A DNA stretch of 63,229 bases, counting the filler, from Rhabdomonas costata (lineage: Eukaryota): assembly GCA_019059605.1 (NCBI GenBank). It is 39 parts of 39 records of this genome, joined end to end, with 100 filler letters (N's around TTAATTAATTAA, not from the genome) between each part and the next. Parts side by side here need not be neighbours in the genome. Positions count along the whole stretch, not along the records: positions 14,628 to 16,152 come from JAHMHO010013832.1; 38 more parts are not named here. One strand, given 5' to 3'. Of the stretch, positions 1,626-55,711 are shown one piece after another. The position numbers and the translations under genes are program-made. The notes under the pieces were generated by a model. The model did no database searches and was not told the DNA's origin. It saw only the letters and a program-made list of their open reading frames with translations. Position 1 is the stretch's first letter, and the number at the start of each line of letters is the position of its first letter.

Positions 1626-4600
1626 GGTGGGGGGGGGCAGGAAGGTGAGTTCTTTGGGCTGTCCATCGCCCACAGAGGACGTTGAGGACAGAAGAAGAGT
1701 GAGTGAGAACGAAACTAGGAAGACAGTGTGGATACTCAGGATTCATACAAGGAAAAATGACAAGAACGGGTAGCCTGTGAGACCGGAAAGAGGTAAGAAC
1801 GCCTGAGAACGTGACATTGGACCGCTGAAAGGTCACAATGTCCCTTAAGAAATCAAAATTCAGGGGCATTTGGATTTTTGAGGATAAGACGTTAAATGTC
1901 TGGCACTGCCAGCGTTCAACACCCTTCGCAAAATAAATGCAAATCACCCCCAAGGTCGAAACCGCAAATTGGAGAGATGGCCGTAGGACGGCAGGAAAGG
2001 AGACGAAACCCCTATTACCACACGCCACAGTACCCGGAAGTACCCAAAACACACCACGAGGTTGAGCACTCTCTATGCTCGTTACAAACGGGGTGATTCG
2101 GGGCCTCGTATACTACCCACAGTTCCCACCCCTTCCGCAGCCCATCAGAAGGAGCTTGAGACGCCCCAGCTTGCCCCGCTTCTGGGGTGGCGGAGAACAC
2201 ATGGCTGCACCGTCCATGCCGCTGCCGCTGCCGCCGCCTGACTTGACGTTTAGGGGATGCTGCGGCGCAGGACTGAACTGCTTCGCAGGGTGATCTGGCG
2301 GAAACTCGCTCAGGCTGCGGAGGGAGGGTGCATTGGTGTGCGCAAGCAATCAATGGAAGTCTACTAGGGTCTCAAGGACTCACCACGCGTCCTTCGACCC
2401 TACTAACCATCCAAGGACTTATTATCATTATTATCATTATCCTCTCTCCCAGTTTCTCTGTCACATAACCCCACCGAATTTCGGTTGCTCTTCTCTTGTG
2501 CAGGAGGTTATGCGTTCCAGGATTGCTATTCTTCGCACCGCCCTCTACGCCTCTATCCCACTCACCACCTCTGAGCCACCTCCTCCCTGCAAGCTGCTTT
2601 GCCTTTTTTTCACCTCCTTTTCCGGCCGTATCCACTGCTTTTTGCACGCAGAATTGATCGATGTCAGTATCAGCAGGCGGATAGCATTTCATGTCTACAC
2701 ATATTTCTCCGCGAAGGAATTTTTTGCACCTGGGTATTCCCACCTACTCAGGATAAAGGCGGAATGGCATAGAACACCTCTTCCTGAGGGGGTCAGGATC
2801 CGGTATTGGGAAGAGGCACTGCTCAAACTTAACCACTTCGGCGTCGCGGGAGGCGGCAAAGCTCACGTGGAGTGATCGAGCAGGACTAGCCTTTCCTCTG
2901 GCCCACCTGCGTGGGGTGGACTGAGGGGTCTGCAGCTCGGTAGAGGGGCAGAATGACGGAGAGGAGCACAGGGAGGTACCCGAGACAACGCTCGCAGGGA
3001 GACTTAGGCTCGAGGCAAGGCCGGGGAGCACAGAGCCTTTCTTCGGGCCGCAGCTGCGCGGAGAGCCGCCGTTGAGCTTCGGGGAAAACACCGAGACTTG
3101 ACCACTGTAGTTCTTTGTAGTCTGAGCCCAAACACAGCATCATAAAAACANNNNNNNNNNNNNNNNNNNNNNNNNNNNNNNNNNNNNNNNNNNNTTAATT
3201 AATTAANNNNNNNNNNNNNNNNNNNNNNNNNNNNNNNNNNNNNNNNNNNNTTTTGGTGTGCGTGTGGGTTTGATGAGTGGTGTGGGTGTATTGCTGCTTG
3301 TTTTGGGTTTTATGTTTTTCTATGAGTTGAAAGTTCATGAGTGGTTTGTGGGCCTAGCTGTCCATATATGTGTGTGGGTTGTTTGGGAGATGTGGAATGT
3401 GCGCATGTTTTTGCGGTTATGGGATGTAATTGTGGTGTGCGTGGTGGTGTTGCGGATATAATGTGTGGAATTGGGGCTCAGAAGTTGGATATGTTTCTTT
3501 GGTTTGGTGTGGTGATGATGCGGTTGGTGATGGTTGGGTGTGTGCGTTGACAGATGGTGTTTTAGTGACGTCTTGTGCTTCGGTGGTTTTTGGTGATAGT
3601 TTTGCTTCCATATGTATTGATTGTGTGGATGTGTGTTCTATGGAGTGTGTGTGCTTACCCATGGGTTTCGTTGCTTGTCCATCTGTGATTACTACGTGTG
3701 GGTTTTGGTGTGCTATTGAGTGTGAGGTGTGTGCAGTGGTAGAGTGTGTGGTCTCCTGTGTTTTTGACTGTGGGTTGGGTGCTGGGTGTATTGACAAGGT
3801 GTATTCGTCAATTGCAACTTTTAGTGCCATTGTTACGTTGGGTTCTGCGATTCCTATGGTTACTTGGAGTGGGTGGTGTGTACAGGTGTATTGGTGTCTC
3901 ACTGCAGACTTGGGATTTGCTATCACAAGCCTTGAAGCCACAAGTAGTCACATTTGCGTACAATGATGCAGTGGCGTCTGCTTGCCAATGCTGCGCAGAA
4001 GTAAAGTGTGTTAGCACAAAGTGTTTTGCTAACACAAAATTAGCACATGAATCCTGAGCTTGCTGATTACTGATTGCAAACCACAGTTAATGGTATATTT
4101 GTAATCGGAGTGATAGATGGGATGCTCAATATTAGCAAAAAAAAATAAGAGTAATGGATGAATTATTTGAGAAGCTAACGCTGTTAGATCTACAAATGAT
4201 GCTAACATTGCCGGATTTCCTCAATCACAATACTATGTATTTTGCAACTACTACTGTTTTCTGTCAAAGAAACTAACACTTGCGTTTTGTTTTCTGAGTT
4301 GTCCAAACTTTGAATTTTTTGTTGAGGTAAAATATTAGTTTTAGCAAATTCTAATACTTTTATTTGCGCTTAAACTAAGCAAACATTTAAACACAGCCAT
4401 TCGTGAGCTTCAAACTGCTTCATTAGCTGAGAAATGATCACTGAAATGCAACCACGGCGCAAGTGTTTAATGAAGTTGAATGAGTTATAGTCTGTTACGA
4501 AAACAGCTTACACATATATCAGAGGTTTATTCCTAATTACTAAATGTCAGTGTGTGTTTTTAGTAGTATTGAACTAAATTCTTATTCACATTCATAAAAA

Positions 4601-8016: not shown

Positions 8017-8169
8017 CCCCCCACNNNNNNNNNNNNNNNNNNNNNNNNNNNNNNNNNNNNNNNNNNNNTTAATTAATTAANNNNNNNNNNNNNNNNNNNN
8101 NNNNNNNNNNNNNNNNNNNNNNNNGGAGGTGTGGGTATGGGTATGGTTACGTTGGGTCATGGTGGTGCT

Positions 8170-8530
8170 AGGGTGCGTAGGGTGGCTAGTGTTGGCGATG
8201 CAGGGGCTGTTGGTGGTGCGTTTGGTCCGTAGTCGGTGTCGTTGGGTGCTGCGTGTCGTACTTCGGTGTGGCTTTGGGTGTTGGATATGTGGTGCTTGTC
8301 GGTCTTCTGTCTGGAGGTCAACCATGTCGAGTCTCTGTAGTGGGTCCTTGTTGCTAGTTTCGTGGGTACGTTGGTGTGGTCCATGGGAGGTGCTGCTGCT
8401 TCAACTTCATCTGTTCAATCGGTATCGCAGTTGCTTGGTAGCCGGGTTTTGGGGCGTCAGGGTCATACATAGGGTGTGTTTGTTGCTGTTGCTGTAGGGG
8501 TATTGTATTCGTGCGTAGGGTGTCAGGATG
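8170..8530 (+). pseudogene. nad5: Heavily decayed mitochondrial nad5-like fragment
   Basis: Across frameshifts and in the correct order: GWLVLAMQG (~WLpdAMEGP), SVSQLLG (~STxSQLG) about 240 nt later, then GH...AVGVLYSCVGCQD (~H...GV.IH...G.QD). Confidence 0.4.
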
Positions 8531-9156
8531 TTGGGTTAGGGCGTTGTTGTGTGGGGTTTGTGCTGTCGTTGCTGTTGATGTTGCTGTGCTTGTTGTAGGC
8601 TACTGTTAACCATGCTCACTCTCAACCATGCCGTACCCGTCAACCATGCTCTCCGTCTCCTGTAGTTGTACCTGTGGCTGTGTCTGTACCTGTTCCTCTT
8701 ACTCTATACGTGTGTGTATCTGTTCTTGTTGTTACTCTGTGTGAACCTGTTGTTGTTAGTGCTTGTGCTGTGGAAGTGTTGTTGGGCTGATGGTATGCTG
8801 GTGTCAGGGTTCAGGGCTAATGTTATGCTGGTGTCTGGATCTTGGGCCAATCTCGTGCTGGGCTAATCTCATGCTGTTGTTCTTCTGCTTCGTGTTACGC
8901 GTAATGGTAGTGTTCGTGTTAGTGTTACTGTGCGAAGGTTTAGGGTTAGCGTTACTGGTAGTTTGGTTGTTGGTGCTTAGCGTTACCGTTACTGTTACTG
9001 TTGTTGTTGTTGTGCGTAGGATGATGGCTTGTTGTGTTGAGGCGAAGGGTTAGCGTGGTATCGTGTTGGTCGAAGCGTCGTTACTGTTAGGTCCGAGGGG
9101 TTGTGTTGTCATGCCTTGTGTTAGTGCTTGTCCTGTTGTGTGTCCACGTATCTGTA

Positions 9157-9458
9157 CAACCAGATCCCCACACCAATACACCAGATCGCACCACGAGACA
9201 ACGAAGAGCCATGCAACAAACAACGGATCATATGAGAATACACGCACATGAAGAACACAGAAGCACCATTCGCATGAAGACCGCACAACACCACCCCAGC
9301 ATCCAATTCCCAACCCACAGCCACCACACTCGAAAACGCTCGGCAGAAGGACAATACCAACACGCAAGCACAAACCCCGTAGCCAATTGCACACCCACAC
9401 ACATTCCCGCACAGAACCCCAATGACTAGCCTGGAGACAACAACGCCGTCGTACTATA
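9157..9458 (-). pseudogene. cob: Mitochondrial cytochrome b N-terminal fragment, with a frameshift and an in-frame TAG
   Basis: Reads YSTTALLSPG*SLGFCAGMCVGVQLATGFVLACWYCP, then after a frameshift AFSSVVAVGWELDAGVVLCGLHANGASVFFMCVYSHMIRCLLHGS...IWCIGVGIWL. The heme-ligand region HANGAS..F..vY.H is clear. Confidence 0.88.
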
Positions 9459-12182
9459 CGCCCTCTTAGATACTACTTGCAACACAGCGAAAGAACCCAG
9501 CAAACAACGGAACCTTGACCCCGAACCCCGAAACCCGAAGACAGAATGCCGAATGCCGATACGCCGATACCCTACGCTCCTCAACTCGCAGACACACATG
9601 CACCCAAGAACTCAACCCAACCCCGAAGACAGAAACCAATGGATAAGAACAATNNNNNNNNNNNNNNNNNNNNNNNNNNNNNNNNNNNNNNNNNNNNTTA
9701 ATTAATTAANNNNNNNNNNNNNNNNNNNNNNNNNNNNNNNNNNNNNNNNNNNNGGTGGTGTGTGTTTGCGTGTGTGCTTGTGCTGTCTTGGAGTGAGGAA
9801 GGTCCCTCCGTTGACCTTCCGGTGAGCGCAAGTCCACAGCGTTCACCTGTCGATAGGAATTTATGTACAGCCTTCAGTGCTTTCACGTTTGTGCGGACAC
9901 GTGTTGCTCAGGTATGCTTGTTATTCTGATTTTTGCGGAATAAAGATATCTTCTTGTGAATTGCCCCAGTCCTGAAAGTACCGCATGAAGGCTTTTGGCA
10001 GAAATTCGTTTCGAAGAGGAAAACAAGGGCACGCTGCACACCCCTTTCATTTGATCTGAACGAGTATTTACTACACGCATTGACAGTCCTTTCTCTTATC
10101 GCTGTTCTGTGGGTTCTACCAGGTGGGCCTAGCTAGCCTCTGCAGCCGGCCTCTGGAACCTCATCAATCGTCGCGAACCTCATTGGAAATGTGGAGGGAG
10201 GCGGAGTGGGACCACTTATTTCGGCCCAAAACCTCGCCCCATTCGCTGGGTGACATCCGCGGTGGTCACTCCCGGACCGGACCGGACCGGACCAAACAGG
10301 AGACCTAACATTGACCTCAGATCCTGAGCTGGAATGATGGGTTGGGGCTCAAATTTGGTGGTATGGTAGTACTCCTGGGATGATTTGGTTGGCCGCTTCC
10401 CGGCTTCCGAATCCTAATCTACGCCGAGATATGGCCCCATCAACTCCTTTCACTCGAAAAACCCTCTAACGAAATGCACTTTTGGCCAAATGACCTTTCC
10501 GGCCATTCCCACGTGAGCATTGCTACGTTTTTCCATGCACAATACCCGTTGTCTTTTTCGGGCTTTTCTTCCTGCTTTTGGTTTCCTTTGGTACCGCTTT
10601 TCACCAGCGGACAATTCGACTTGTTATGAAATTTTCTACCCCATTAGACCAAAACTGCATGAATCTATGCATGAATAATTGGAAACCCCCTTTTGCAAGA
10701 CCAAAACCCCCATCCCCGCAAAACTACCGAATTCGATCAAAAACTTAGGCCAATGAATTATTGTAAATATTTCCCATTCTTTTCATGCAAATTCGCCTTC
10801 CTTTTCCAAGTTTTCAAACTTTACTCCAACCTCTCAATTTCCTTTTCCTAATCCAAAAGGAACACTCGTTGCAATGTGTTTTTTGTTCCATCTAACGCTT
10901 TTATTTTGGGATTGGGGAAGGACTTTTAACTAAATTTCCACCGAAATCAGCAAAGTATTTTATAAAGTGCGTTAGTTTCAGTAAACCGGTCCCCCCGCCA
11001 ACACGAGGTTCGGAAAACCGAGCCCGATCATTTGGCTGGGCTTTGTTTTTCTCGTTATTTGCGCCTTTTGTTGGAGTAGCCGCGGGTCAGCAAAAAACCG
11101 CGAGCGGGGGAGGGGTCCCTGCGAGCGCCAAAAAAACGTGTACTCCACTAAAACGCCCACAAAAGCAAAATCCCGACCCTTCCTCTTCTACCCCAACCGG
11201 ACCAGTTGCCAGCTTCCAGCCTAGCCAGGTTGGCGGCTTACCGGGCCAAGGGTGCACCCTTTTGACCGCGTCCATGGTNNNNNNNNNNNNNNNNNNNNNN
11301 NNNNNNNNNNNNNNNNNNNNNNTTAATTAATTAANNNNNNNNNNNNNNNNNNNNNNNNNNNNNNNNNNNNNNNNNNNNTTTTGTTTTGTTTTGATTCATT
11401 GTGTGCCTGTGAGTTGCTCTCCTGCTTGCTCGCCTCAGGTGGTGTGTGGAATATGTATTCTGCCCGAGGGGAGCATTTCTTCACCTACACAAACAGCACA
11501 CATCAGCGGATTGATCTTCGAACTACACAGGCTCTCGAGGGCTGGATAACCTTCGCTTGCCTTTGGATGGTTCGGTTGCCTGTTGCGGTGCATTGCTTTC
11601 TTGGAGGTTCTCCCGAATAGGTCGGATCGTGCGCGTGCGAGCATCGCCGCGCTGACACCTGATTAGTTCTGCCCAGACTAGTTGACCTGTTAGTTCTTTG
11701 CTGTAGGTGAGTAGCAAAAGAGCTCAATGTGGCCTATCACGCAGCTTCAATGATGCGTATCGAGATAGGCTACGCCAACAGTTCGGTTGCGGGCAACGAA
11801 AGGCGAAAAGCGATGCTTGAATTTCCAATCCAATGAACATGGAATGATGGAAAATTTTCGCTGGTAAGGACATAAAACATAGATATGGGAGCTCCAAGGG
11901 TTTTTACTGTCGCATTCGGCAACCAGAGTATTCGTCTCTCCTGCGGATGAGTTTGGACCCGGTGGCATCGCATTAATTTGTGCCTTTGTTTTCATGGAAA
12001 TGTGCCTGCCCAAAACTATGTCATTCTATGCTGGCCTGGAAAACTCGCTTAATTTCATGCCATTATTCAATCAATGCCCAGAGGGAATTTTCAGTCTTCT
12101 GTTGTTTGTCAGTGCTCCGATTTCCTGTATTGTGGTGTTGTTTTCTTAACCGTCGTTAGATCCGTGAGCAGTCCAGATCACA

Positions 12183-12684: not shown

Positions 12685-14637
12685 GTACATCCTCCCTCTT
12701 TTGTGACTTGTGTGACTTTCTCCCGCGAGATGTTTCTGATTTCCGTGTTACGGCGGCGGCTTTCTGGTTTGCAAGGGGTACGTTGGGGCTGCAGGTCCAA
12801 TGCCCTTTCTTGGAGGATCCTGCACGAATAACAAGTCATTAAACATCCGTTCTGGAGGAGGGCGGGATTTGTACAAGCAAAGAGAATAGGCGACCACAAC
12901 AANNNNNNNNNNNNNNNNNNNNNNNNNNNNNNNNNNNNNNNNNNNNTTAATTAATTAANNNNNNNNNNNNNNNNNNNNNNNNNNNNNNNNNNNNNNNNNN
13001 NNATGTGGTGGTGTCCCTCACCAGGAAGAGGACGAAGAAGTTGAGAGATGTCGAATAGATCTGAGGATGGAGGCAGGATCGCGGTAGGAGTAAGTAAGTG
13101 AGTGAGTGAAAGAGTAAGTAAGTGTGTGTGCGTGTGTGCGTGCGTGTGCACGTGCGTGGAATATCCACGTGATCGATGCGTCTAGGTTCTGTGTTTGGCT
13201 TAGTGGTTTTCTTAAGATGTCGAAGAGCACAGGCTTGCGGACTTCATGGACGACTTTTGGATGGCCGGCTGAGAATGGCCTTCGTCCGTTTGAAAGGCCT
13301 TTTTCTTTTTGAGCTCAAACTTACGGCTTCCAGATACGAGAAGATGATGTATCCAGGAGTCTTCGTTCGTTGTGTTTGCAGTTAACCTCCGCCTCCCAGC
13401 TTGCCTTCTCAGTACGGCGTTCAAGATCAATTATTGCGCGAAAGGACCTTCCTGAGTAGGCCTGCTACGTGTATGTGTTTCCAGATTTCATTTTTTTTTT
13501 TGCAAAGAACCAGAAACCGGCCGTACATCTTGCTATTTTGCTTCATGTGCAAGTTTGCTGTTTCTTTTGGCAGTCTCTTGACAGGGCTGGAGCCAGCATC
13601 CACAATCCCTGTGTGGTGTTCAATACCACGCCCTGCTTCGAGGTGGATTTAGGGCTCACATATGGGATACTCTGCCTCCGCCGCATGGCTGCGGAGGGCA
13701 GCCCATATAGGAGGCATTGCACAGGATGAGCGTAAGACATCCTTGAACGCGTGCTACACAGTGGGGGGGAGGACCCCGGTGTTCTCGAAGCTGAGCTATT
13801 CGGGCGAGTTCGGGGGAGAAAGGGTGAACCCCATCCCCCAGTTCTCTACCTCATCGCTGCACTTCGGGAAGAACGCAAAACACGAACCCCACACAGATGC
13901 ATTGTTCACCACAGTGCTCAGTCCTACTGTGCCATACACAGTTAGGACTTGTGTGACTCAACAAGGCAGAAAAAAAGGACAAAAAAGAGGGAGAAATTCG
14001 TCAGGGTGACGGAGTCGCCCAACTCTCTGTTCCCAAGGAAGGCAAGAAAAAGGGTCAGTGCAAGAGCACTGGGGTGTTGCGCGCCCAGTGGAGCAAGACT
14101 CCCCTGGGCGTCCCCCCCAGACTCCGTCACCCCAGGGGACACAGAAACAAAAGTGAGCAAGTATGCCTCCCCCGACCGTTGCCGATCCTCTCTCCAGAGG
14201 AAAGTGGAAAGGCGGGCCTGGGTACAGGCCAGAAAAATAGACACGGACGCGCACACGCGAACCGCAGACACACACCAAATACCAAGATCGAGCATTTCAA
14301 AATTGCCTGTTCAGGTGTGCCCCTCCATCTTTTTAAGTGGGCCCTTTAAAAAACGGCCAGAGAAAAAGGGAGAAGGGAGCTTAACGATTTCATACACTGC
14401 AAGGCGGTGCTGGAAACGGTCAGGAAAAAGGCATAGAACAATGGGAGTGAGAAGTTGTCCTCCAGAGTGCAAGGAGGCCGAGGTCACACGACACCATAAG
14501 AGGGGGTCATCTGCTTGCCAACCAAAANNNNNNNNNNNNNNNNNNNNNNNNNNNNNNNNNNNNNNNNNNNNTTAATTAATTAANNNNNNNNNNNNNNNNN
14601 NNNNNNNNNNNNNNNNNNNNNNNNNNNTGTGGTTGTG

Positions 14638-15270
14638 GATAGGAACTATGGGTCGTGTGTGTAGGACGGTATGCTTGGTGGTGATCCAGTTTTGTAGCAG
14701 CATCTCTTTTGGTTATTTGTGCATACTGAAGGATAGATAGTTATCTTACACATCTTTGGCTTGGTGTCGGGTTCTTTGCGCTATGTGTCTGGACGTGAGG
14801 GTATGGTGTACTGTATGTCTGCTATCGGGGGTTTCGGCTTCTGCGTATGGGCTCATCACATGGTTATCGTTGGGCTGTATGTGTATTCTTGTGCTTAGTT
14901 TAGTGCTGCGACTTCTGTGGTGTCGATTCATACTTCTGTCAAGGTGTTTGTAGTTGGAATCTCTCCTATGTTTTCCTGCTCCTATTGGTTCTGCTGCTGT
15001 GTGGTCGTTCTTGGCTTTCTTGGTGTGCTTTACTTCGGGTGGATTTACGTGTTTTGTGCTGTCTTTTGCTTCCTTGGACATCACTCTACATGATAACTAG
15101 TTTGTTGTTGCTCACTTTCATACGGTGCTTTCGTTGGAGCTGTGTTTGGAATGTTTGTTGCGTTGCCTGGGTTTTTGTTTAGTGTGTCGATCTGTGATGG
15201 TGCTGCTGTGCTTCAAGCGTTTCTGTTGACTCCTGGTGCTTTTCTGGTGTTCGGTTCTATGTATTTCGCG
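14638..15270 (+). pseudogene. cox1: Mitochondrial cytochrome c oxidase subunit 1 internal fragment (euglenid-like), with 6 in-frame TAGs, 2 frameshifts and block deletions
   Basis: Reads DRNYGSCV*DGMLGGDPVL*QHLFWLFVHTEG*IVILHIFGLVS...GREGMVYCMSAIG..G..VWAHHMVIVGLYVYSCA*FSAATSVVSIHTSVKVF / *L...[44 protein letters not shown] / GAVFGMFVA...GAFLVFGSMYFA. Cox1 motifs appear in the expected order. Confidence 0.97.
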
Positions 15271-15424
15271 TTGTCTTCCTCTTGTCTCCGTGTGTATGTT
15301 CTATGGTAGTAGTCTGTGTGGTAACGGTGTACTGTGTGACCGATGGTGGTTTATGCTGTGTGCTCACTCCCATGGTTGAGCTGCTGCTTGTTGGGGCTCT
15401 GGTTGTGGAGTTACGAGTGCTGTG

Positions 15425-15640
15425 GACCCAAGGCCATTGTGTGAGTGCTTGTGCTGTCAGCCTTTGCAGTTAGTTGGTAGTGGTGGCCGTTGTTTGTACA
15501 TGGCATCTACTCTATCCTGGTGATTGCATCTGTTCATGGTGAGTACGTTGGTAGTGGTGACGATGGTTTTGGTGTACCGGTTGGGCATCCCATTCATTAA
15601 TCTGCTGTCAGTGGAAGGGCTTTGCGGTGTGGCTGGAGGT
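15425..15640 (+). pseudogene. Possible decayed mitochondrial nad4-like fragment
   Basis: QGHCVSACAV (~GH.lsSa.mF), then in a shifted frame with TGA=Trp, GGRCLY...LVYRLGIPFINLLSVEGL (~N.g.Pf..lf.vE). Weak match; it sits next to the cox1 fragment. Confidence 0.33.
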
Positions 15641-18600
15641 ATCGGTGCTTACCCTACACTCAACCTCTTGTACATGCCTTGGCTTCCATCTCACGTGCGT
15701 ATCATTCTACTAGTGTGTACCTTGTGTGGAGAGAGTGTACCGGTAGTAGGGTGTTGGCATCATAGCGTATGGCATGTTGGCATCTCAGTCTTTCGATCCC
15801 CTCCCATACCATCACTGACTCAGGGAGTGAAAGTACCCCCTTGCTTTTACACTTGAAGGCATAGAAGTACGAAGCATGGTTCTGAGCGTAGCGAATAAGC
15901 CATGCGTAGTAGAGGGTAAAGGGCATCTGCGATAGGTGATGTAGAGAACTGGTTGGAATGCTTACACCATATGCCTAACTCACCAACATTACCAGCAACG
16001 TCCCTTCCTCCACAACAGCCACTCAAACCACCACAATGCCACCACTCCACCATCACACCATCAGCACTACACTATCACTCCCTCACCACTACCAACACAC
16101 CTCCAACAACATGGCACAGGAATCGGAGACACACACCATCCTAACAAACACCNNNNNNNNNNNNNNNNNNNNNNNNNNNNNNNNNNNNNNNNNNNNTTAA
16201 TTAATTAANNNNNNNNNNNNNNNNNNNNNNNNNNNNNNNNNNNNNNNNNNNNCATATACGAGCGGGAGGGGGGGGGGAGGCACAACACTTTATAAACCAC
16301 AAAGCAAATCGGGGCAAAATAGTGTAAGGGGGCGTTAACCAGCTTCATGCAGGACCAAAGAACTCTTATTGCACCTTTCTAGAGTTTTTTTTCACGGTCG
16401 TAGTTGTTGCGGTGCCATAATTGGGAACTTCTTGCTGGGCTTCAGCAGCCAAATGACACCGGTTTACACCAGGGGCGGAGGCGAGCGCTGCGGAGTGGCC
16501 CCAGCGGGCGGCGGAAGCGGGGACGTTGCATACCGTAGAACCGTACACCGCTAAACCGCACCGCGAAAACGTTGATGCAGTGTACCACACACCGCCGCCA
16601 GCTCGTATAGTGGTGCTGTAGCGTTTAACGCCCAACCCACTAAAAATTTTTGTGTGTGGAGAAAAGTGTTTGCTTCATTCCGCTGTCTAGAGAAGTTGCG
16701 AGAACCCCGCTAGGGAAGCCAACTACCGCTGAACGAAACATGTCAGCAAGTCACTCTAGAGCCCTGGGAGCACAACGCACATAGAAGCCACTTCTTTTCA
16801 AACAAAAAGAAGCTTTTCGGGCGTTGCCTTTGAACCCACAGGTGGCTTCTAAAAGTATCGCTAAGCCACAAACCAGTAGCAGTAGCTAGGCATCCGAGAC
16901 TCTTCGCGGACAAGGTGGAGCAGCATCTTGGTTCCGCAGAAGCAGCTCACCCCCCACTGCTGCGTGAACTGGTCCTGTTGCGGGGGGCAGGCCAGCCCGT
17001 CAAAGGCCATATCCTCCAGCGCTGCATGGGCAACGACCCCATCAATCAAACAAAAACGGGAAAGGAATGACAAATATTCTAATAGCCAGCACGGGCGACT
17101 AAACGGACCACGAGCGCAGGTTCATCCCTTTGCTTTCCACAAAACAAATGCATCACGTGCCCATGCAAAAGATACAGAGAGCTACCGCATTTTCCGCCGT
17201 ATGCAGCTGCACTTTTGAAATGCACTTCCATATGGACCCGCATCCAGTTTTCTGTCTCAAATTCAATATTTGGGGACCAGAGCTTCGGCAGAAGCAAACA
17301 CACGCACATGACGCTTTGCAAAATTGCTGTCGTGTGCAAGTTTTTGTGTTTAGCTGGGGATATTCCTTTTTGCCGTTTTGTGCTCGCGTCGCGAGCGCGC
17401 TTGACGAAAGTACTATGTAATACCACAAAAGGGACGAGAACGATGAAACGATGGAGGACCTGGAATCATAATTCCAGATGATTGCGAGTCCCACACATAT
17501 ACGAGAGAAACAATTTTTCTGATCCGCACGTTCTTCCGCATCTCACTTTTGTTTCTTCTCTGTCCGAAGTTAAATAACGCGGAACAGTGAAGCAAACCCC
17601 GGCAACCAGCAGGGGGGCTGAAACCTGCAGCGATGTTGCAGTCCATTGGCCAGCACCACCCATGCTCAGCCCCTCCAGAGACTGGCCCTGTGGCTGCAGG
17701 GGAAGAGGCCGTCATAGCCTCTCGCAACGCACTGGCAGCCCTCAAAGTGCTCCACCTGCCCCCCCGTCCCCCCCCANNNNNNNNNNNNNNNNNNNNNNNN
17801 NNNNNNNNNNNNNNNNNNNNTTAATTAATTAANNNNNNNNNNNNNNNNNNNNNNNNNNNNNNNNNNNNNNNNNNNNTGTGTTTTGTCAGAAACCAAATAA
17901 TATATTTTGATTGCTTATCTTTATTTTGGATCAACCCTCCCCCAAACTCCTCAACGGATGTGTGCCGTTCACCCATCGAAATCTTATTCGGACACATCTG
18001 GTACATTTACGACCTACATGCTGCTCTTTTTGAGGCTGTTCGTGCTGTTCCTTCCATTTTGTAATTGCCGCTATGTAAGCCGCGTAAAGCGAGGAATCTG
18101 ATGTTTTTTCCGGCTCAATGAGTCGTTGGCTATACATGGAGAAAACCGATGTTGCCGGTTATTGAGTTTGCAGGTGTTTGCAAAGCCTCCGCAAAGTGAG
18201 CTGCGCACAGCGAGGGTTATGCGCAAGCTGTTCATGTGAGAATGTGTTCCTCTGTGTTTTCAGGACTGTTGTCGTGTCCATAGTCTCCATCTAGAATTTA
18301 TTTTTCCTTCCGTTCTTCGTATATTGCCTTACAGGGGACAAGTGAAACAACTTAATCTCCCAGTCAAGCGAGTTATAAATTGGGCCGCTGACTTTCCTTG
18401 TTTTGTTGCAAAAAACGCCACGTTTCTCTCACCACTAAGCTGCTTGCTCAGATAACAGAACAAACAAGCTGTGCAGCCAATGCAATGTGATATACTGGCG
18501 GAACAGCAGATGTTTTCCTAGCGCAGTGCCCGACAGCCCAGCAGCATCTCATGAGCATTTGGAATACTAATACAGGCAGCCACGCTCAGGAGTTAAGTTG

Positions 18601-21163
18601 GAAAGATCCACAGTTTCGTGCCTACACATGCAACTCGGATATCCCTCCTTTGATCCTGGAATTCTAGATCAGTAAATAGCAGCTGATGTTGCATGACGTG
18701 TTGGCCATCCAGTGCGCACTCATCGCTTTGGGATAGAATGTCATTTGGATATTCCAGAGTGACATTGAGTTTGATTCAAGTTTGATTCAAATGATCTTTT
18801 GCCAGCAAATCAAGAACACGTTTCTACATCACACATATGAGTGGCGTTTGATTGAAGAGACAGACAACTGGACCATGAGAGACGGTTGTCCGAAGTTCCA
18901 ATCCACAGTGCAGACATACAATATGTTCATACTAGTGCAGCTTCACACATCATTGGCGCTGAACATGATCGACTGACTGAACTACAACCTTCATCTGAAG
19001 GTAGTGGGAATCCCACTCTACAACAGTATCCGAATGTTGCGCAGGCTGCTTGCGCACAGTTCGCGTCGCCACCAGTGGCTCAATGGCATCAAACAATGCA
19101 TTTGGACACGTTGAGGCACTAATCGCTCTGTTCCACAACAATAGGTTTCAGTACAATGCCTTCTCTGGAAGACCCGTCGAGCGAACATTGGGTATGAGCT
19201 GCTCTCATTACAGTGATGTTGCGCAGGGTCTTCATCGTGCAGCGAGATCGCGAGTCTCGACGCATATCGGCAGAGCTACATGAAGCTAGAAGAGCATGTG
19301 GATCGTGGCTTCTCCTCCAACTCTTCTGTCTCCTCTAAGAGCTCAGGAATATTATCAGCTAATTCGCCATATTCTTCTTATTCATGCAGAAAACACAAAC
19401 NNNNNNNNNNNNNNNNNNNNNNNNNNNNNNNNNNNNNNNNNNNNTTAATTAATTAANNNNNNNNNNNNNNNNNNNNNNNNNNNNNNNNNNNNNNNNNNNN
19501 GTGTTGGGTGTGTGTGGGTTTGTGGTTTTCGTGTTTCGGTTTCTGGATTTGGGTGTCGGAGTTGGAAATTCGGGTTCGGTCTTTGCTTTTGGGTTCGGCA
19601 TTCGGCATTCGCTTTCGGTTGGAACACAGGCTCTCTTTGCATCGGCTATCCGGTATTCGGTTTCGGTTTCTCTCGGTCGCTTCGGGGACTCTATGCGCAT
19701 ATTTGAAAGAGCAGTGGGCACTGGCATAACCCCGTATTCGTACGAACCCAGCCGGAAGTATCACCGTGGTTTAGGGGGTGGAACGCCAGTGACGTAGTGA
19801 TGAACGGATTTAGTAGGCAGATTACCCATGTAGCTGGATTTCGTTTGTGTAGGACTTGATGGTGTTAGTGGTTCCATAGTGCTTGGGTTGGTCGGCGTAG
19901 CGGTTTCTGTCTCCGTCTCCGTTTCTGTGTCTGTGCCTCGGTAGTGCTTTCCCATCTCACCGGTTTCTATCGTTGTGTGGCCTTCCCAGGGATTCAGGGG
20001 TTCTATCTTTCGTCGTGTCTCTACGTCTCACATACCTCCGCGAGAGGACAGAGTTTACCAGACGCCTACTTTCACTATACGCGACTGCACGAGTACACCA
20101 AAGCACAGTTCAGGCCCCAGTACCATGCGTAGAAGAGGTTCCGCATGCGAAGTTGAGGTGACCGCACTGATGAGTGAGGTGGTATCTTTTGTGGTGTCTT
20201 TTCCTTTCGTAAATCTGTGAATTGCATGCAGATTTTTTTGCGCAAAAATATTGATGATGAGAATGTAAGTTTTGAGTTTTGGGTCTTTTGTCCTGTGTAC
20301 ACAGAGGATGTGCTTCAGGGTGCGCGCACACTCATTTGGATGCATCGGGCACTGCCGTTCAGTCCTTCCGAGCGCGGGGGGCATCGCACCCCGCATTCCT
20401 GCTCAGGGAACACACCTGCTCCTCGAACAACCGGAATTAAGACAAAAATTGTCGAAATGGCAGAAATATAAATAAAAAACGCCAAGCAGCGCGTCACGTT
20501 AAAGCTGCGGCGGGCTTTAAACACTGGACGATGTGACCCTTGTCGGCGGCATTGCATTAGTCTGAGAATTCCGATTCTGTGGGCACGCTCACAGGTGTGG
20601 AAGTCCCTGCCGTGGATGCGGGCTTCGCTCGAGAGAAAGGCGCCGCAGTGGCCCCTGTTCCTCAGAAGGGGCCCGAAACCTCCCTGCGCGCTGCCCAAGG
20701 GAAGGTACACTTCTCTTTTGTTGTGTCGTCGTGTTTAGTCTGTTTGGTGACTGCCCGCACACAAACACGCAATCTGAAGGCCGCTCAATAGTGCTCAATA
20801 GTGCTCGGCCGCGCCTCGGACTGGCCTTTACACCTAAATCTATTCAATTTTGTTCTAAAAGGGGTCACGGAAGCAGCAGCAATTTTTCATCGTCCAATGA
20901 TCTACGTCGCGGGGAAGCCGAGAAGCACACACAGAGAGAGACAGGAAGGTCACGGAGGGCGTGCGTCCACTTCGCACCTGGTTCCGATTTTCGCCCCGAA
21001 ATAATTGGAATATCACAGGCANNNNNNNNNNNNNNNNNNNNNNNNNNNNNNNNNNNNNNNNNNNNTTAATTAATTAANNNNNNNNNNNNNNNNNNNNNNN
21101 NNNNNNNNNNNNNNNNNNNNNTTCTGGATTCGTAGGGTTGGGGCTGTGAATTTGTGGGCGTAG

Positions 21164-21615
21164 CATTCGGTGTTGGAGATGTTGTGGACGGTGGTGCCTG
21201 TTGCGTTTTTTTATTTGTGGTTGGTGCATGGGGTGGCTACGTTGTATGAGGTTACGGGTGGTGTAAATATGGTCTTCTATGGTCGTCTTTTTGTGGGTCT
21301 GTTGCTTCTGTGGTGGTTCATCAATGGTATTGGGAGCTGAAAGGTGTGAATTATCAGTTGGTTGGCAGTGGCGCGTTGGATCTGGTTATGGTGCGTATAT
21401 TGCTTTGGTATCAGCCCTTGTTTGTCGCGTTTGGTTCCTCAGTTTGTCTAGCGGTTTCTAGAGTGGTAGCAGTTGCCTGTCTTGGTGTGAAGTTTGATGC
21501 CGTTCATGGCCGCGTTTCTCGGGTGTGTGTGGTTAGTTCTTCGGTTAGTGCGCTGAGATTTTTGGTCCTACTTTCTGTACGGCTTTGCGCGCACAAGTTC
21601 GTATACATTTGTTAG
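21164..21615 (+). pseudogene. cox2: Mitochondrial cytochrome c oxidase subunit 2 fragment, frameshifted, CuA motifs damaged
   Basis: HSVLEMLWTVVPVAF...TLYE (LE..WT..P helix), then after a frameshift VVVHQWYW...LGVKFDAVHGRV. The DVxHS and CxExC motifs cannot be read. Confidence 0.9.
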
Positions 21616-23286
21616 CATTCTGTCTCCTTCAATTACAGCTAACGTAATGGAATGGTCCATAGGAGGATGCCGAATGACACAGTGGCCACAGAGGGTGACG
21701 TGGAGAACACTCACTGCTAAATCACCATCAAACACATCTTCCACCATTGGGAGAGTGGCAACCGCACATCTTCAGGTGTTGGAATGGGACGATGATGGAG
21801 CGGGTTGTTAGAGAGACGCTGAGATGCACCATGAAACCTTGCTGATGGCTGAGCTGAGACACCCGCTGCACATCGACCTCCAGACCGACTGGGAGTGATA
21901 GTGGAGAGTGACACCTGCTACACCGTTGGTGGTGAGTGGGGACAGAGAGTGAGACCAACGTGAGACAAACGCGCCACTCACTCTAACCATATACCACCAC
22001 CACAGAAGATAGGATATCTACTCCTACTGAGGTTGTTGAGAGATGGCAGCAACCGCATGTCAGAGGGTGAGAGCATGCCTCTATGTTAGAGTTGATGCAA
22101 TGCCAAGCTGAGGACATGATGGGTGTATGGAGTGGCGGTGGATGCAAGATAATGGTGGGACACTGGAGTCTATGGTTAGTGTCATCGGGTATGCTTTTAC
22201 TGCGTGAGCCCCAAACACTTGTGCAGAGATTTTGAACTGGACAACACTCCAGAAGCTCTAAAGCCACACAGTACAGCAACACACAACATGCACTTACCAA
22301 GCACTTAACTTACCAAGCACTTAACTTAACAAGCACTACCAACATCCTTACATCCAACCACCATGAGGCCAGCAATCCACACATCGTATCACTCGACACC
22401 ATATGACACTGACACACACAAAGCACTAACAAAGCACTACAGACAGAGAGCATGGTTGCAGGGAGCATGGTTGAGACGGACAGCAACACCAACACCACAC
22501 TATAGTCAAGGTGACGTACACACTCTACTACTAGGGTAAACCACGCCTAGGTTGGAGAGGAGATGACAATATGCCCTAAGCTAGGATGACAACACCCTAC
22601 TACCGATACACTCTGTAGCACAATACTACACAAGTTACACAACACCNNNNNNNNNNNNNNNNNNNNNNNNNNNNNNNNNNNNNNNNNNNNTTAATTAATT
22701 AANNNNNNNNNNNNNNNNNNNNNNNNNNNNNNNNNNNNNNNNNNNNGGTTGGTGTTTTCTGGTGTTACTTCCCCTGCCACTGCGGCACATCCGTAACTCC
22801 AGAGTCCTGCTCTGCTAGTGATCCGGTGCTTTTCCTTCGGCCATGCCGATGCTGTCATCTCACTAACGGCTCTTTCATCGGCTGCAGGCTTTCTCAATCT
22901 TTCTATTGTACCGATAGAGCCCATTCTGTTTTCGTCCGAGTGAGGGAGTGGTTTTGTCCATTGAGAAGAGGGGAAGCCGCTCAAGTCATGGCTGCCGAGC
23001 AGTCTGAGCCAAATCAGGTTGTCGTACTGCACGCTTTCACACGGCTCTGTTCCCTTCCCTCGCCTCGCGCATTAAGGTGAACCTCGCCAACACCCTTCTC
23101 CTGTAGACCCTGTCCTGCATACTATTCCGAGCACCCTCCACTCCCTGGTCCTGTGATAGACTGGACCTTTTCAATCGGGGACCGCCCTCGCGTTCTGGTG
23201 AAGGGTAAAGCCGGTAGCAGAGAGCTTCATCACAATGCACTTTTTCGCCATCTTTGGAGGTGTTTTGGCTGGTGGGATGCGTTCGG

Positions 23287-47224: not shown

Positions 47225-47225
47225 A

Positions 47226-47256
47226 TTTTTTATTATTATGATTTAATAATAAAAAA
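47226..47256. terminator. AT-rich hairpin just downstream of the RING-like gene's stop codon
   Basis: TTTTTTATTATTA / TAATAATAAAAAA, a perfect 13-bp stem with a 5-nt loop. Confidence 0.55.
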
Positions 47257-47261
47257 ATTGA
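47254..47261 (+). promoter_or_regulatory. AAAATTGA, Mimiviridae-type early promoter motif
   Basis: Exact octamer about 100 nt upstream of ATG 47360, in AT-rich intergenic DNA. Confidence 0.55.
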
Positions 47262-47359
47262 AAAATAAAAATACTGCACAATATACATACAACAACATAA
47301 GCAGATTCCTTTGGAACCAAAAAGCTCTTTTTGTCCAAGCCTTAGCAAATCGTAACGAG

Positions 47360-48178
47360 ATGTCGTCTTCTCTGCCAGAGATTGCCCCAGCCCCAACTGC
47401 TGTCTTTTCTTTGCGTCAATCGCGAACTATGGACCGACCTCAACAAATCCGAGATTTGAGCATAGCCAGTACAGTTAGCACAAACAGTAATGTATCACGT
47501 GCGTCTACGACAATTAGACATAAGCGCTTGTTGTCGAGAAAACAGATTACCGACAATTACATTGACGTAAAAATGGACACTAAAACACTTATTAAACAAA
47601 AAGAACAGAAGATTTATGAGCTATTTGGGGAAGTAAAATCTACCAACGGTCAAAACTTCGGATTTTACTTGACGTTAACCGCTTTGATTAGATACTACAA
47701 CAAGTTTGTGAAGACTTGTGGAGTTACATCCTTTTTCGAGTATGATATGGGACCAGAAGAACAGCTAACTTTTGTTGGGCACGACGATTTTAACAACGTG
47801 TTTGACAAAATCAAGAATCTGTTTAGCAGCATTGAGAGTGATGGAAAATTAAATCCTTTCACAAAGATTGTTATCATGACAGAAGCAATCTATGCAGCTT
47901 ACTGCCAACAATCGCGCGAGAAGGAGCGATCACGTCCTAATCCACGGCCTCGTTTCCCACAACATGAATCGTCTCCAACAGCAACTTATCAAACACCGGT
48001 CGAAGAAATCACAGCTATTGCAAGAGAACCACGAGCCGAGACTCGTGGTTTTGCAGTACTAGAGCGCGATGACAGCCTCCGACGAGATTCAGAACAAATG
48101 ATGGCTCGAACAAGGCGCCAGAGAGATAGACATGGGCCATGCACTTATAAACCTCCCATGTCTGCGTCGTCTAATTAG
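47360..48178 (+). CDS. Intronless hypothetical protein (272 aa), probable giant-virus ORFan
   Basis: Longest clean ORF in the window, ATG 47360 to TAG 48178, with no introns, flanked by the motif and hairpins. No family recognised. Confidence 0.75.
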   Translation: MSSSLPEIAPAPTAVFSLRQSRTMDRPQQIRDLSIASTVSTNSNVSRASTTIRHKRLLSRKQITDNYIDVKMDTKTLIKQKEQKIYELFGEVKSTNGQNFGFYLTLTALIRYYNKFVKTCGVTSFFEYDMGPEEQLTFVGHDDFNNVFDKIKNLFSSIESDGKLNPFTKIVIMTEAIYAAYCQQSREKERSRPNPRPRFPQHESSPTATYQTPVEEITAIAREPRAETRGFAVLERDDSLRRDSEQMMARTRRQRDRHGPCTYKPPMSASSN

Positions 48179-55523: not shown

Positions 55524-55610
55524 GCCCGCGTGGCGGAACGGTAGACGCTACGGACTTAAAATCCGTTGGGAGTTGATCCTGTGCCGGTTCGAGTCCGGCC
55601 GCGGGTACCA
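55524..55610 (+). tRNA. trnL: tRNA-Leu(TAA), bacterial type, CCA encoded, no intron
   Basis: Acceptor stem GCCCGCG/CGCGGGT, anticodon arm ACGGA-CTTAAAA-TCCGT, long variable arm, GGTTCGAGTCC, ends ACCA. Confidence 0.95.
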
Positions 55611-55617
55611 TCAAAGG

Positions 55618-55689
55618 GGCTCGGTAGCTCAGTGGTAGAGCACCAGACTGAAAATCTGGGTGTCGCCGGTCCGATTCCGGCTCGAGCCA
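55618..55689 (+). tRNA. trnF: tRNA-Phe(GAA), bacterial type, atypical T-loop
   Basis: Acceptor stem GGCTCGG/TCGAGCC, TAGCTCAGTGGTAGAGC, anticodon arm CCAGA-CTGAAAA-TCTGG. The T-loop reads TCCGATT rather than TTCGA, and the 3' end reads ACCT. Confidence 0.9.
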
Positions 55690-55711
55690 CCTCTTCAATT
55701 ACCTTCGCAAC

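Follow-up and report, generated by a model that had tools for sequence, protein, structure and literature searches.

The closest described system is that of Rhabdomonas costata itself, whose mitochondrial cox1, cox2, cob and nad4 are described as using a code in which UAG specifies Tyr and UGA specifies Trp (Soukal et al. 2021, PMC8219788). According to that description, translation of these genes with UGA as Trp still gave numerous UAG stops at the places where other euglenozoans have Tyr; no sign of RNA editing is reported in it, the set of tyrosyl-tRNA synthetases is described as unusual, and the curated mitochondrial records are given as GenBank MW837143-MW837146 (PMC8219788). This paper was the only relevant full-text match on UAG as Tyr in euglenids or Rhabdomonas, and the claim of the first-pass annotation of the DNA analysed here, that such a code had gone unreported in Euglenozoa, falls with it, the code having been published for R. 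costata in 2021 (PMC8219788). The same publication cites earlier cases of UAG as Tyr for Labyrinthulea and for the sponge Clathrina clathrus, the latter also with UGA as Trp (PMC8219788). In the mitochondria of Clathrina clathrus and of some Labyrinthulea the codon-to-Tyr reassignment is identical, but the lineages are unrelated and the origins independent.

A second point of reference is the mtDNA of Euglena gracilis, which is made up, in its published description, of small linear molecules that hold numerous gene fragments and pseudogenes, and in which neither tRNA genes nor editing are reported (PMC4700960). All of its protein genes are said there to occur also as scattered short fragments or pseudogenes (Spencer and Gray 2011; Dobakova et al. 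2015, PMC4700960), and the DNA studied here is similar in that pieces of cox1, of cob (two pieces, on opposite strands) and of cox2 lie on 3 of 39 contigs. Nonetheless, the two differ in composition (approximately 25% G+C in E. gracilis mtDNA, PMC4700960, versus approximately 48% G+C with a strong G+T skew in the present fragments), in the code, which in E. gracilis is described as departing from the standard one only by UGA as Trp (PMC8219788), and in sequence, since E. gracilis Cox1 scores 600 bits against the closest intact relative of our cox1 fragment (P0125) and is clearly different from it. The likeness to the published R. costata genes is closer: these are euglenid, have UAG in frame where Tyr is conserved in cox1, cox2 and cob, and come from short contigs of a very fragmented assembly. 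They are, however, curated and complete, whereas the cox1 copy described below is a frameshifted pseudogene, the comparison being made through the published description. Both the code variant and a fragment-rich architecture are already known and in print.

The window, that is, the whole stretch of DNA that was analysed (63,229 bases), is not one locus, but 39 contigs of 1511-1529 bp each, joined by linkers of the form N44-TTAATTAATTAA-N44. Most of these contigs have a near-even base composition, and 4 of the 39 (those starting at 3251, 8125, 14628 and 21122) begin with a G+T-rich part (70-80%). Recognisable mitochondrial gene pieces were found on three of these four, namely cox1, cob and cox2 (Table 1). 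In the cox1-bearing contig the G+T content stays at 70-72% up to about position 15500 and then falls to about 50%, the final 300 bp being C+A-rich. A 55-bp repeat is common to the cox1-bearing and the cox2-bearing contigs, in both cases outside their G+T-rich parts. The remaining G+T-rich start, at 3251-3800 (75-80% G+T), holds long open frames with no Pfam match, and its only similarity is a non-significant one (E 0.55) to the cox3-like tail of a relative from public assemblies (P0130); it may be yet another piece of a mitochondrial gene, in divergent form.

Table 1. Mitochondrial gene pieces, in-frame TAG codons and related features (coordinates along the window)
Feature	Position	Strand	Details
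cob C-terminal fragment	8185..8502	+	opposite strand to the N-terminal fragment; contig 8125-9653
cob N-terminal fragment	9154..9500	-	residues ~13-125 of P0128; one frameshift near 9332
cox1-bearing contig	14628..16152	.	1525 bp, tenth of 39
cox1 pseudogene, first stretch	14629..14949	+	P0125 residues 207-318
TAG at Tyr218	14662..14664	+	Tyr in 79/108 and Phe in 28 full-length Cox1 sequences
TAG at Tyr229 (DPVLYQHLFW)	14695..14697	+	Tyr in 108/108 Cox1 sequences
TAG at Tyr242 (HPEVY)	14734..14736	+	Tyr in 108/108 Cox1 sequences
TAG at Tyr301 (RAYF)	14896..14898	+	Tyr in 108/108 Cox1 sequences
cox1 pseudogene, middle stretch, shifted frame	14951..15135	+	residues 320-380
TAG at Tyr320 (KVFSYL)	14951..14953	+	after frameshift
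TAG at Tyr369 (LHDTYFVV)	15098..15100	+	P0125 alignment
cox1 pseudogene, last recognisable stretch, first frame again	15136..15264	+	residues 381-427
55-bp repeat	15732..15786	+	87% identical to 22560-22614, reverse orientation
cox2 fragment, second transmembrane helix region	21122..21280	+	contig start

The rest of the window gave little that could be assigned. None of ten long ORFs analysed matched a Pfam family, save for a below-threshold match to PBECR4, a phage-type nuclease domain, in a 317-codon open frame at 47225-48178 of an A+T-richer contig (E 1.2e-4, 22.9 bits, cut-off 27). The regions 3251-3900, 8500-9150, 15600-16152 (minus strand) and 21122-21700 were likewise without a Pfam family, eight ORFs of the window were absent from the protein collection by exact look-up, and two clade-specific degenerate patterns had no match in genome contigs or viral contigs. 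A scan with Rfam returned neither rRNA nor SL RNA in the window, and the published spliced-leader motif of R. costata had no match at up to 3 mismatches in the 63 kb, an absence that is uninformative either way. The only tRNAs of the window, tRNA-Leu(UAA) at 55524-55610 and tRNA-Phe(GAA) at 55618-55691, lie 7 bp apart on a contig (55213-56736) unrelated to the cox1, cob and cox2 fragments. ORFs resembling BolA and a ribosome-recycling factor, recognised by eye, stand 3' of this pair, and the contig has a bacterial or organellar look, because its gene density is unlike that of the other contigs; it may be a contaminant.

The cox1 fragment was placed by a frameshift-aware alignment to P0125 (495 aa), which covers residues 207-427 over positions 14629-15264, so that the contig begins inside the gene. 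Its reading frame is discontinuous, with two frameshifts: the middle stretch is entered by the loss of 2 nt at 14950 and left by the loss of 1 nt near 15134-15136. Along the resulting path of 211 codons there are six stop triplets, all of them TAG and all at Tyr positions of P0125, and neither TAA nor TGA occurs, which agrees with what had been noticed in the first pass, both as to the position of the six TAGs and as to the absence of TAA from the recognisable cox1 frames. By comparison, the other two phases of the same stretch contain 4 TAG, 6 TGA and 1 TAA. The Tyr of HPEVY, which had been called invariant, proved to be so across the full-length Cox1 sequences compared. One of the six requires a caveat, since reading the TAG at 14951 entails the frame change already implied in the first pass, with one stray G at 14950, and the alternative offered by the frameshift aligner at this point is GTA with a 1-nt skip. 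Elsewhere in the fragment Tyr is encoded in the ordinary way at two positions, by TAT at 14647 and by TAC at 14809. The similarity is gone 3' of residue 427, where frame 1 holds two consecutive TAGs (15307, 15310), a TAA (15322) and a TGA (15337), and no intact gene end is found within the window.

As for its origin, the resemblance to E. gracilis Cox1, suggested by a few motifs in the first-pass annotation, was borne out. The closest PDB match of the fragment is 8iuf_C1 (109 bits, against 100.5 for the next), and the distance is larger when P0125 is used in its place (600 bits for the same chain and 415 for the next one); a study of the respiratory chain of Euglena gracilis cites the entry 8IUF. 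At the level of sequence similarity, this confirms a euglenid-type cox1, closer to that of Euglena than to those of other lineages.

The other two genes follow the same rule with one exception. In the N-terminal piece of cob, the TAG at 9428-9426 (minus strand) aligns to Tyr33 of the Cob reference P0128, while Tyr23, Tyr57 and Tyr97 are encoded by TAT; in the C-terminal piece, the TAG at 8338 corresponds to Tyr within "ESLYWVL", the one at 8230 to a non-Tyr residue in a poorly conserved variable loop, and the one at 8439 lies past the reliable alignment. The cox2 piece has its TAG (21161-21163) at the Tyr of "IYH" in 8iuf_C2, the Cox2 of Euglena gracilis. The TAGs at 9428 and 21161, which had been thought to fit the same code, do so, and the opposite outcome, TAGs at random residues of the other fragments, is not what is found: taking cox1, cob and cox2 together, 9 of the 10 alignable TAGs stand at a Tyr of the nearest reference, 8230 being the exception. 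This correspondence between TAG and Tyr is a direct observation. No UGA read as Trp occurs in the alignable parts, where all 11 Trp codons are TGG; two in-frame TGAs (21338 and 21347, within 21338-21349), which would be Trp under the euglenozoan code, lie 3' of the cox2 fragment, where the similarity has already faded and nothing is aligned. On the contig 8125-9653 the C-terminal (plus) and N-terminal (minus) pieces of cob face each other, an arrangement due either to a rearranged fragment or to a chimera of assembly or amplification.

The cox1 copy is dead, that is, non-functional, as judged from its two frameshifts and from changes at 9 of 51 near-invariant columns, defined as those conserved in at least 97% of 108 full-length Cox1 sequences. 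Among these references, 92 of the 108 have no change at such columns and the maximum is 3. Relative to P0125, the codons for residues 255-262 and 392-394 are missing, and several conserved motifs are altered (HPEVY to HTEG followed by TAG, ILP to ILH, GLDVD to GLYVY and IPT to IHT), although the metal-ligand His residues of HxExY, WAHH and HFH are retained. A functional cox1 disguised by sequencing errors is ruled out by these same two features, the number of altered invariant columns and the frameshifts.

Taken as a whole, the contig 14628-16152 carries the distal half of a dead, euglenid-type cox1, and its TAGs most probably go back to a mitochondrial gene in which UAG stood for Tyr, having come down from it as sense codons. 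The TAG-bearing copies within the window are all broken. The top database matches are Cox1 sequences from metagenome and run assemblies (with P0125 as query against metagenome contigs, those among the matches listed were distant Cox1 loci of at most 48% identity, L001-L080, and were not used). Some of these relatives have intact cox1 ORFs free of TAG: P0125 and P0002 (495 aa each) and P0130 (1127 aa), one of which may belong to the organism of the window. P0130, on a contig of 7073 bp, is a single stop-free ORF that spans cox1, cob and a cox3-like region; stops are evidently very rare in this G+T-rich mtDNA, and in that frame gene ends are unmarked.

Other relatives are truncated, and the place of truncation is informative. 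For 12 truncated ORFs that share 75% identity or more with P0125 or P0128 and are aligned to their last residue (P0131, P0132 and P0141, truncated and with diverged tails, being left out), 8 end directly before a Tyr position (binomial P 1.6e-8), 3 before Cys and 1 before Gly; these relatives are known from their ORF ends, not from their DNA, and some of the ends may be contig ends. Two of them, P0157 and P0124, have no changes at the near-invariant columns they cover (0 of 47 and 0 of 22), end before Tyr, and share lineage-specific residues with the copy in the window ("CMSAIG", "GLDVDS"). Because of the unchanged conserved columns, they have the look of functional genes broken off at Tyr positions. 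Of the positions that are TAG in the window, five are Tyr in P0157; P0124 ends at Tyr320, where P0157 has Tyr; this switching between Tyr and stop among P0157, P0124 and the window is the flipping expected of synonymous codons. The pattern suggests that the UAG-as-Tyr trait extends to other relatives represented in public assemblies of metagenomes and runs. The three ends just before a Cys position (P0129, P0139 and P0137; 3 of 12, P 0.005 by chance) may reflect in-frame TGA at Cys or Trp sites, and for P0139 at least a contig end is unlikely, because it lies on a contig of 13.5 kb.

These relatives also give rise to a more novel reading, which we regard as somewhat unlikely: the window would come not from R. 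costata but from a different member of a broader euglenid group whose mtDNA is G+T-rich and in which UAG as Tyr is general and the use of TAG swings widely among close relatives. The contrast in TAG use fits such a picture, P0125 and P0130 being TAG-free over 495 to 1127 codons, whereas P0157, P0124 and P0126 break at one or two Tyr positions. If this were true, stop-codon capture could be followed in the group along a natural gradient. An improbable option is that the fragment stems from an organism other than the main one of the assembly, for instance from another euglenid in the culture or sample, which would then be the owner of the TAG code. The assembly does not appear to be pure, given the bacterial or organellar type of at least one contig (55213-56736), and public assemblies contain several cox1 variants that are closely related. 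However, 4 of the 39 contigs have a like G+T-rich composition and two of them share a repeat, which points to an abundant repeated component rather than to a trace contaminant; moreover, a foreign origin would alter the owner of the code and not the way in which it is read.

Quite improbable, too, is that the TAGs are the product of ordinary decay, in which a cox1 resembling P0125, using the standard code or one with only UGA as Trp, lost its function and then accumulated nonsense mutations. Such decay would accommodate the evident degeneration of the copy, the bias of its substitutions towards G and T, and the existence of intact relatives free of TAG. Its quantitative expectation can nonetheless be calculated from the substitution spectrum, for which mutations were derived by parsimony with P0125 and P0128 taking the place of the ancestor. 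Over 363 aligned codons, 107 differ, 80 of them by single-step changes, and G>T, C>T, C>A, T>G and C>G are prominent in the resulting spectrum. Under it, 0.48 Tyr-to-TAG events are expected, against 7 counted (8 with that at 14951; Poisson P 7.7e-7 for at least 7), while for other nonsense codons, such as those from TCG to TAG or GGA to TGA, the expectation is 3.74 and the count is zero (P 0.024). Put differently, Tyr-to-TAG makes up only 11% of the nonsense mutations that decay should produce, and every one observed is of that type. Furthermore, the pattern recurs in cob, in cox2 and in the ORF ends of relatives that look intact. The excess over decay is thus established, random decay is rejected on it, and the original view that the TAGs are not its product stands.

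The codon usage of the fragments agrees with this. At fourfold-degenerate sites (n=137), G and T dominate (G 49, T 66, A 11, C 11), and the proportions of TAG, TAT and TAC at Tyr positions roughly track those of G, T and C at these sites; if TAG is Tyr, the fourfold-site bias leads one to expect mostly TAT and TAG there. TAG occupies more than half of the Tyr positions in the fragments of the window, and no position that is Tyr in the references has changed to another amino acid in cox1 or cob, save for the alternative GTA reading at Tyr320. From the excess over decay, this bias and the ORF ends of the relatives, the proposal that a functional ancestor decoded UAG as Tyr gains support, and we infer from sequence data that UAG was actually translated in this way.

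Finally, RNA editing would have TAG, and perhaps other odd codons and the frameshifts, present in the DNA and corrected to Tyr in the transcripts ahead of translation, as happens in the mitochondria of dinoflagellates or other euglenozoans; mitochondrial RNA editing is described as heavy in kinetoplastids and diplonemids and the fragment does need base changes and frame corrections to make sense, but turning TAG into TAY demands a G-to-pyrimidine change, which is not, to our knowledge, among the editing types of Euglenozoa (U insertion or deletion, C-to-U and A-to-I). Editing is rejected as highly improbable on this requirement, on the published accounts, which report no sign of it in the mitochondria of E. 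gracilis (PMC4700960) or R. costata (PMC8219788), and on the relatives with intact conserved residues, which still break at Tyr positions.

Returning to the reading of the TAGs as inherited sense codons, a plausible sequence of events can be outlined. This mtDNA has a strong preference for T and G at third codon positions, and such a preference, together with UAG as Tyr, makes TAG a common Tyr codon beside TAT. The codon would be read by a tRNA-Tyr, most simply a nuclear-encoded and imported one with a CUA anticodon; import is proposed because the mtDNA of E. gracilis has no tRNA genes, and such a tRNA is probably what the system uses. In parallel, the mitochondrial release factor would no longer recognise UAG, leaving UAA as the sole stop. 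The cox1 copy would have lost its function later, through the two frameshifts and the replacements of near-invariant residues, and its presence among fragments of cob and cox2 is what might be expected of a fragment-rich, recombining mtDNA resembling that of E. gracilis.

The copy could equally be a nuclear insert of such fragment-rich mtDNA. Like known NUMTs, it is a dead piece of an organellar gene adjoining sequence of other composition; unlike them, its contig shares the 55-bp repeat with another fragment-bearing contig. The switch in composition within contigs and the shared repeat are compatible with either the mitochondrial or the nuclear compartment.

Organelles seldom reassign stop codons, and the cases in which they do illustrate how a genetic code can be altered. 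The UAG-as-Tyr code of euglenid mitochondria is real and unusual, but has been in print since 2021, and the window does not add a new kind of system. What it does add is that a dead copy of a gene still records the code of its parent, as well as a quantitative test of decay that separates inherited sense TAGs from nonsense mutations. For the annotation of such assemblies, euglenid mitochondrial contigs need to be translated with UAG as Tyr and UGA as Trp, since otherwise their genes will be split at Tyr positions.
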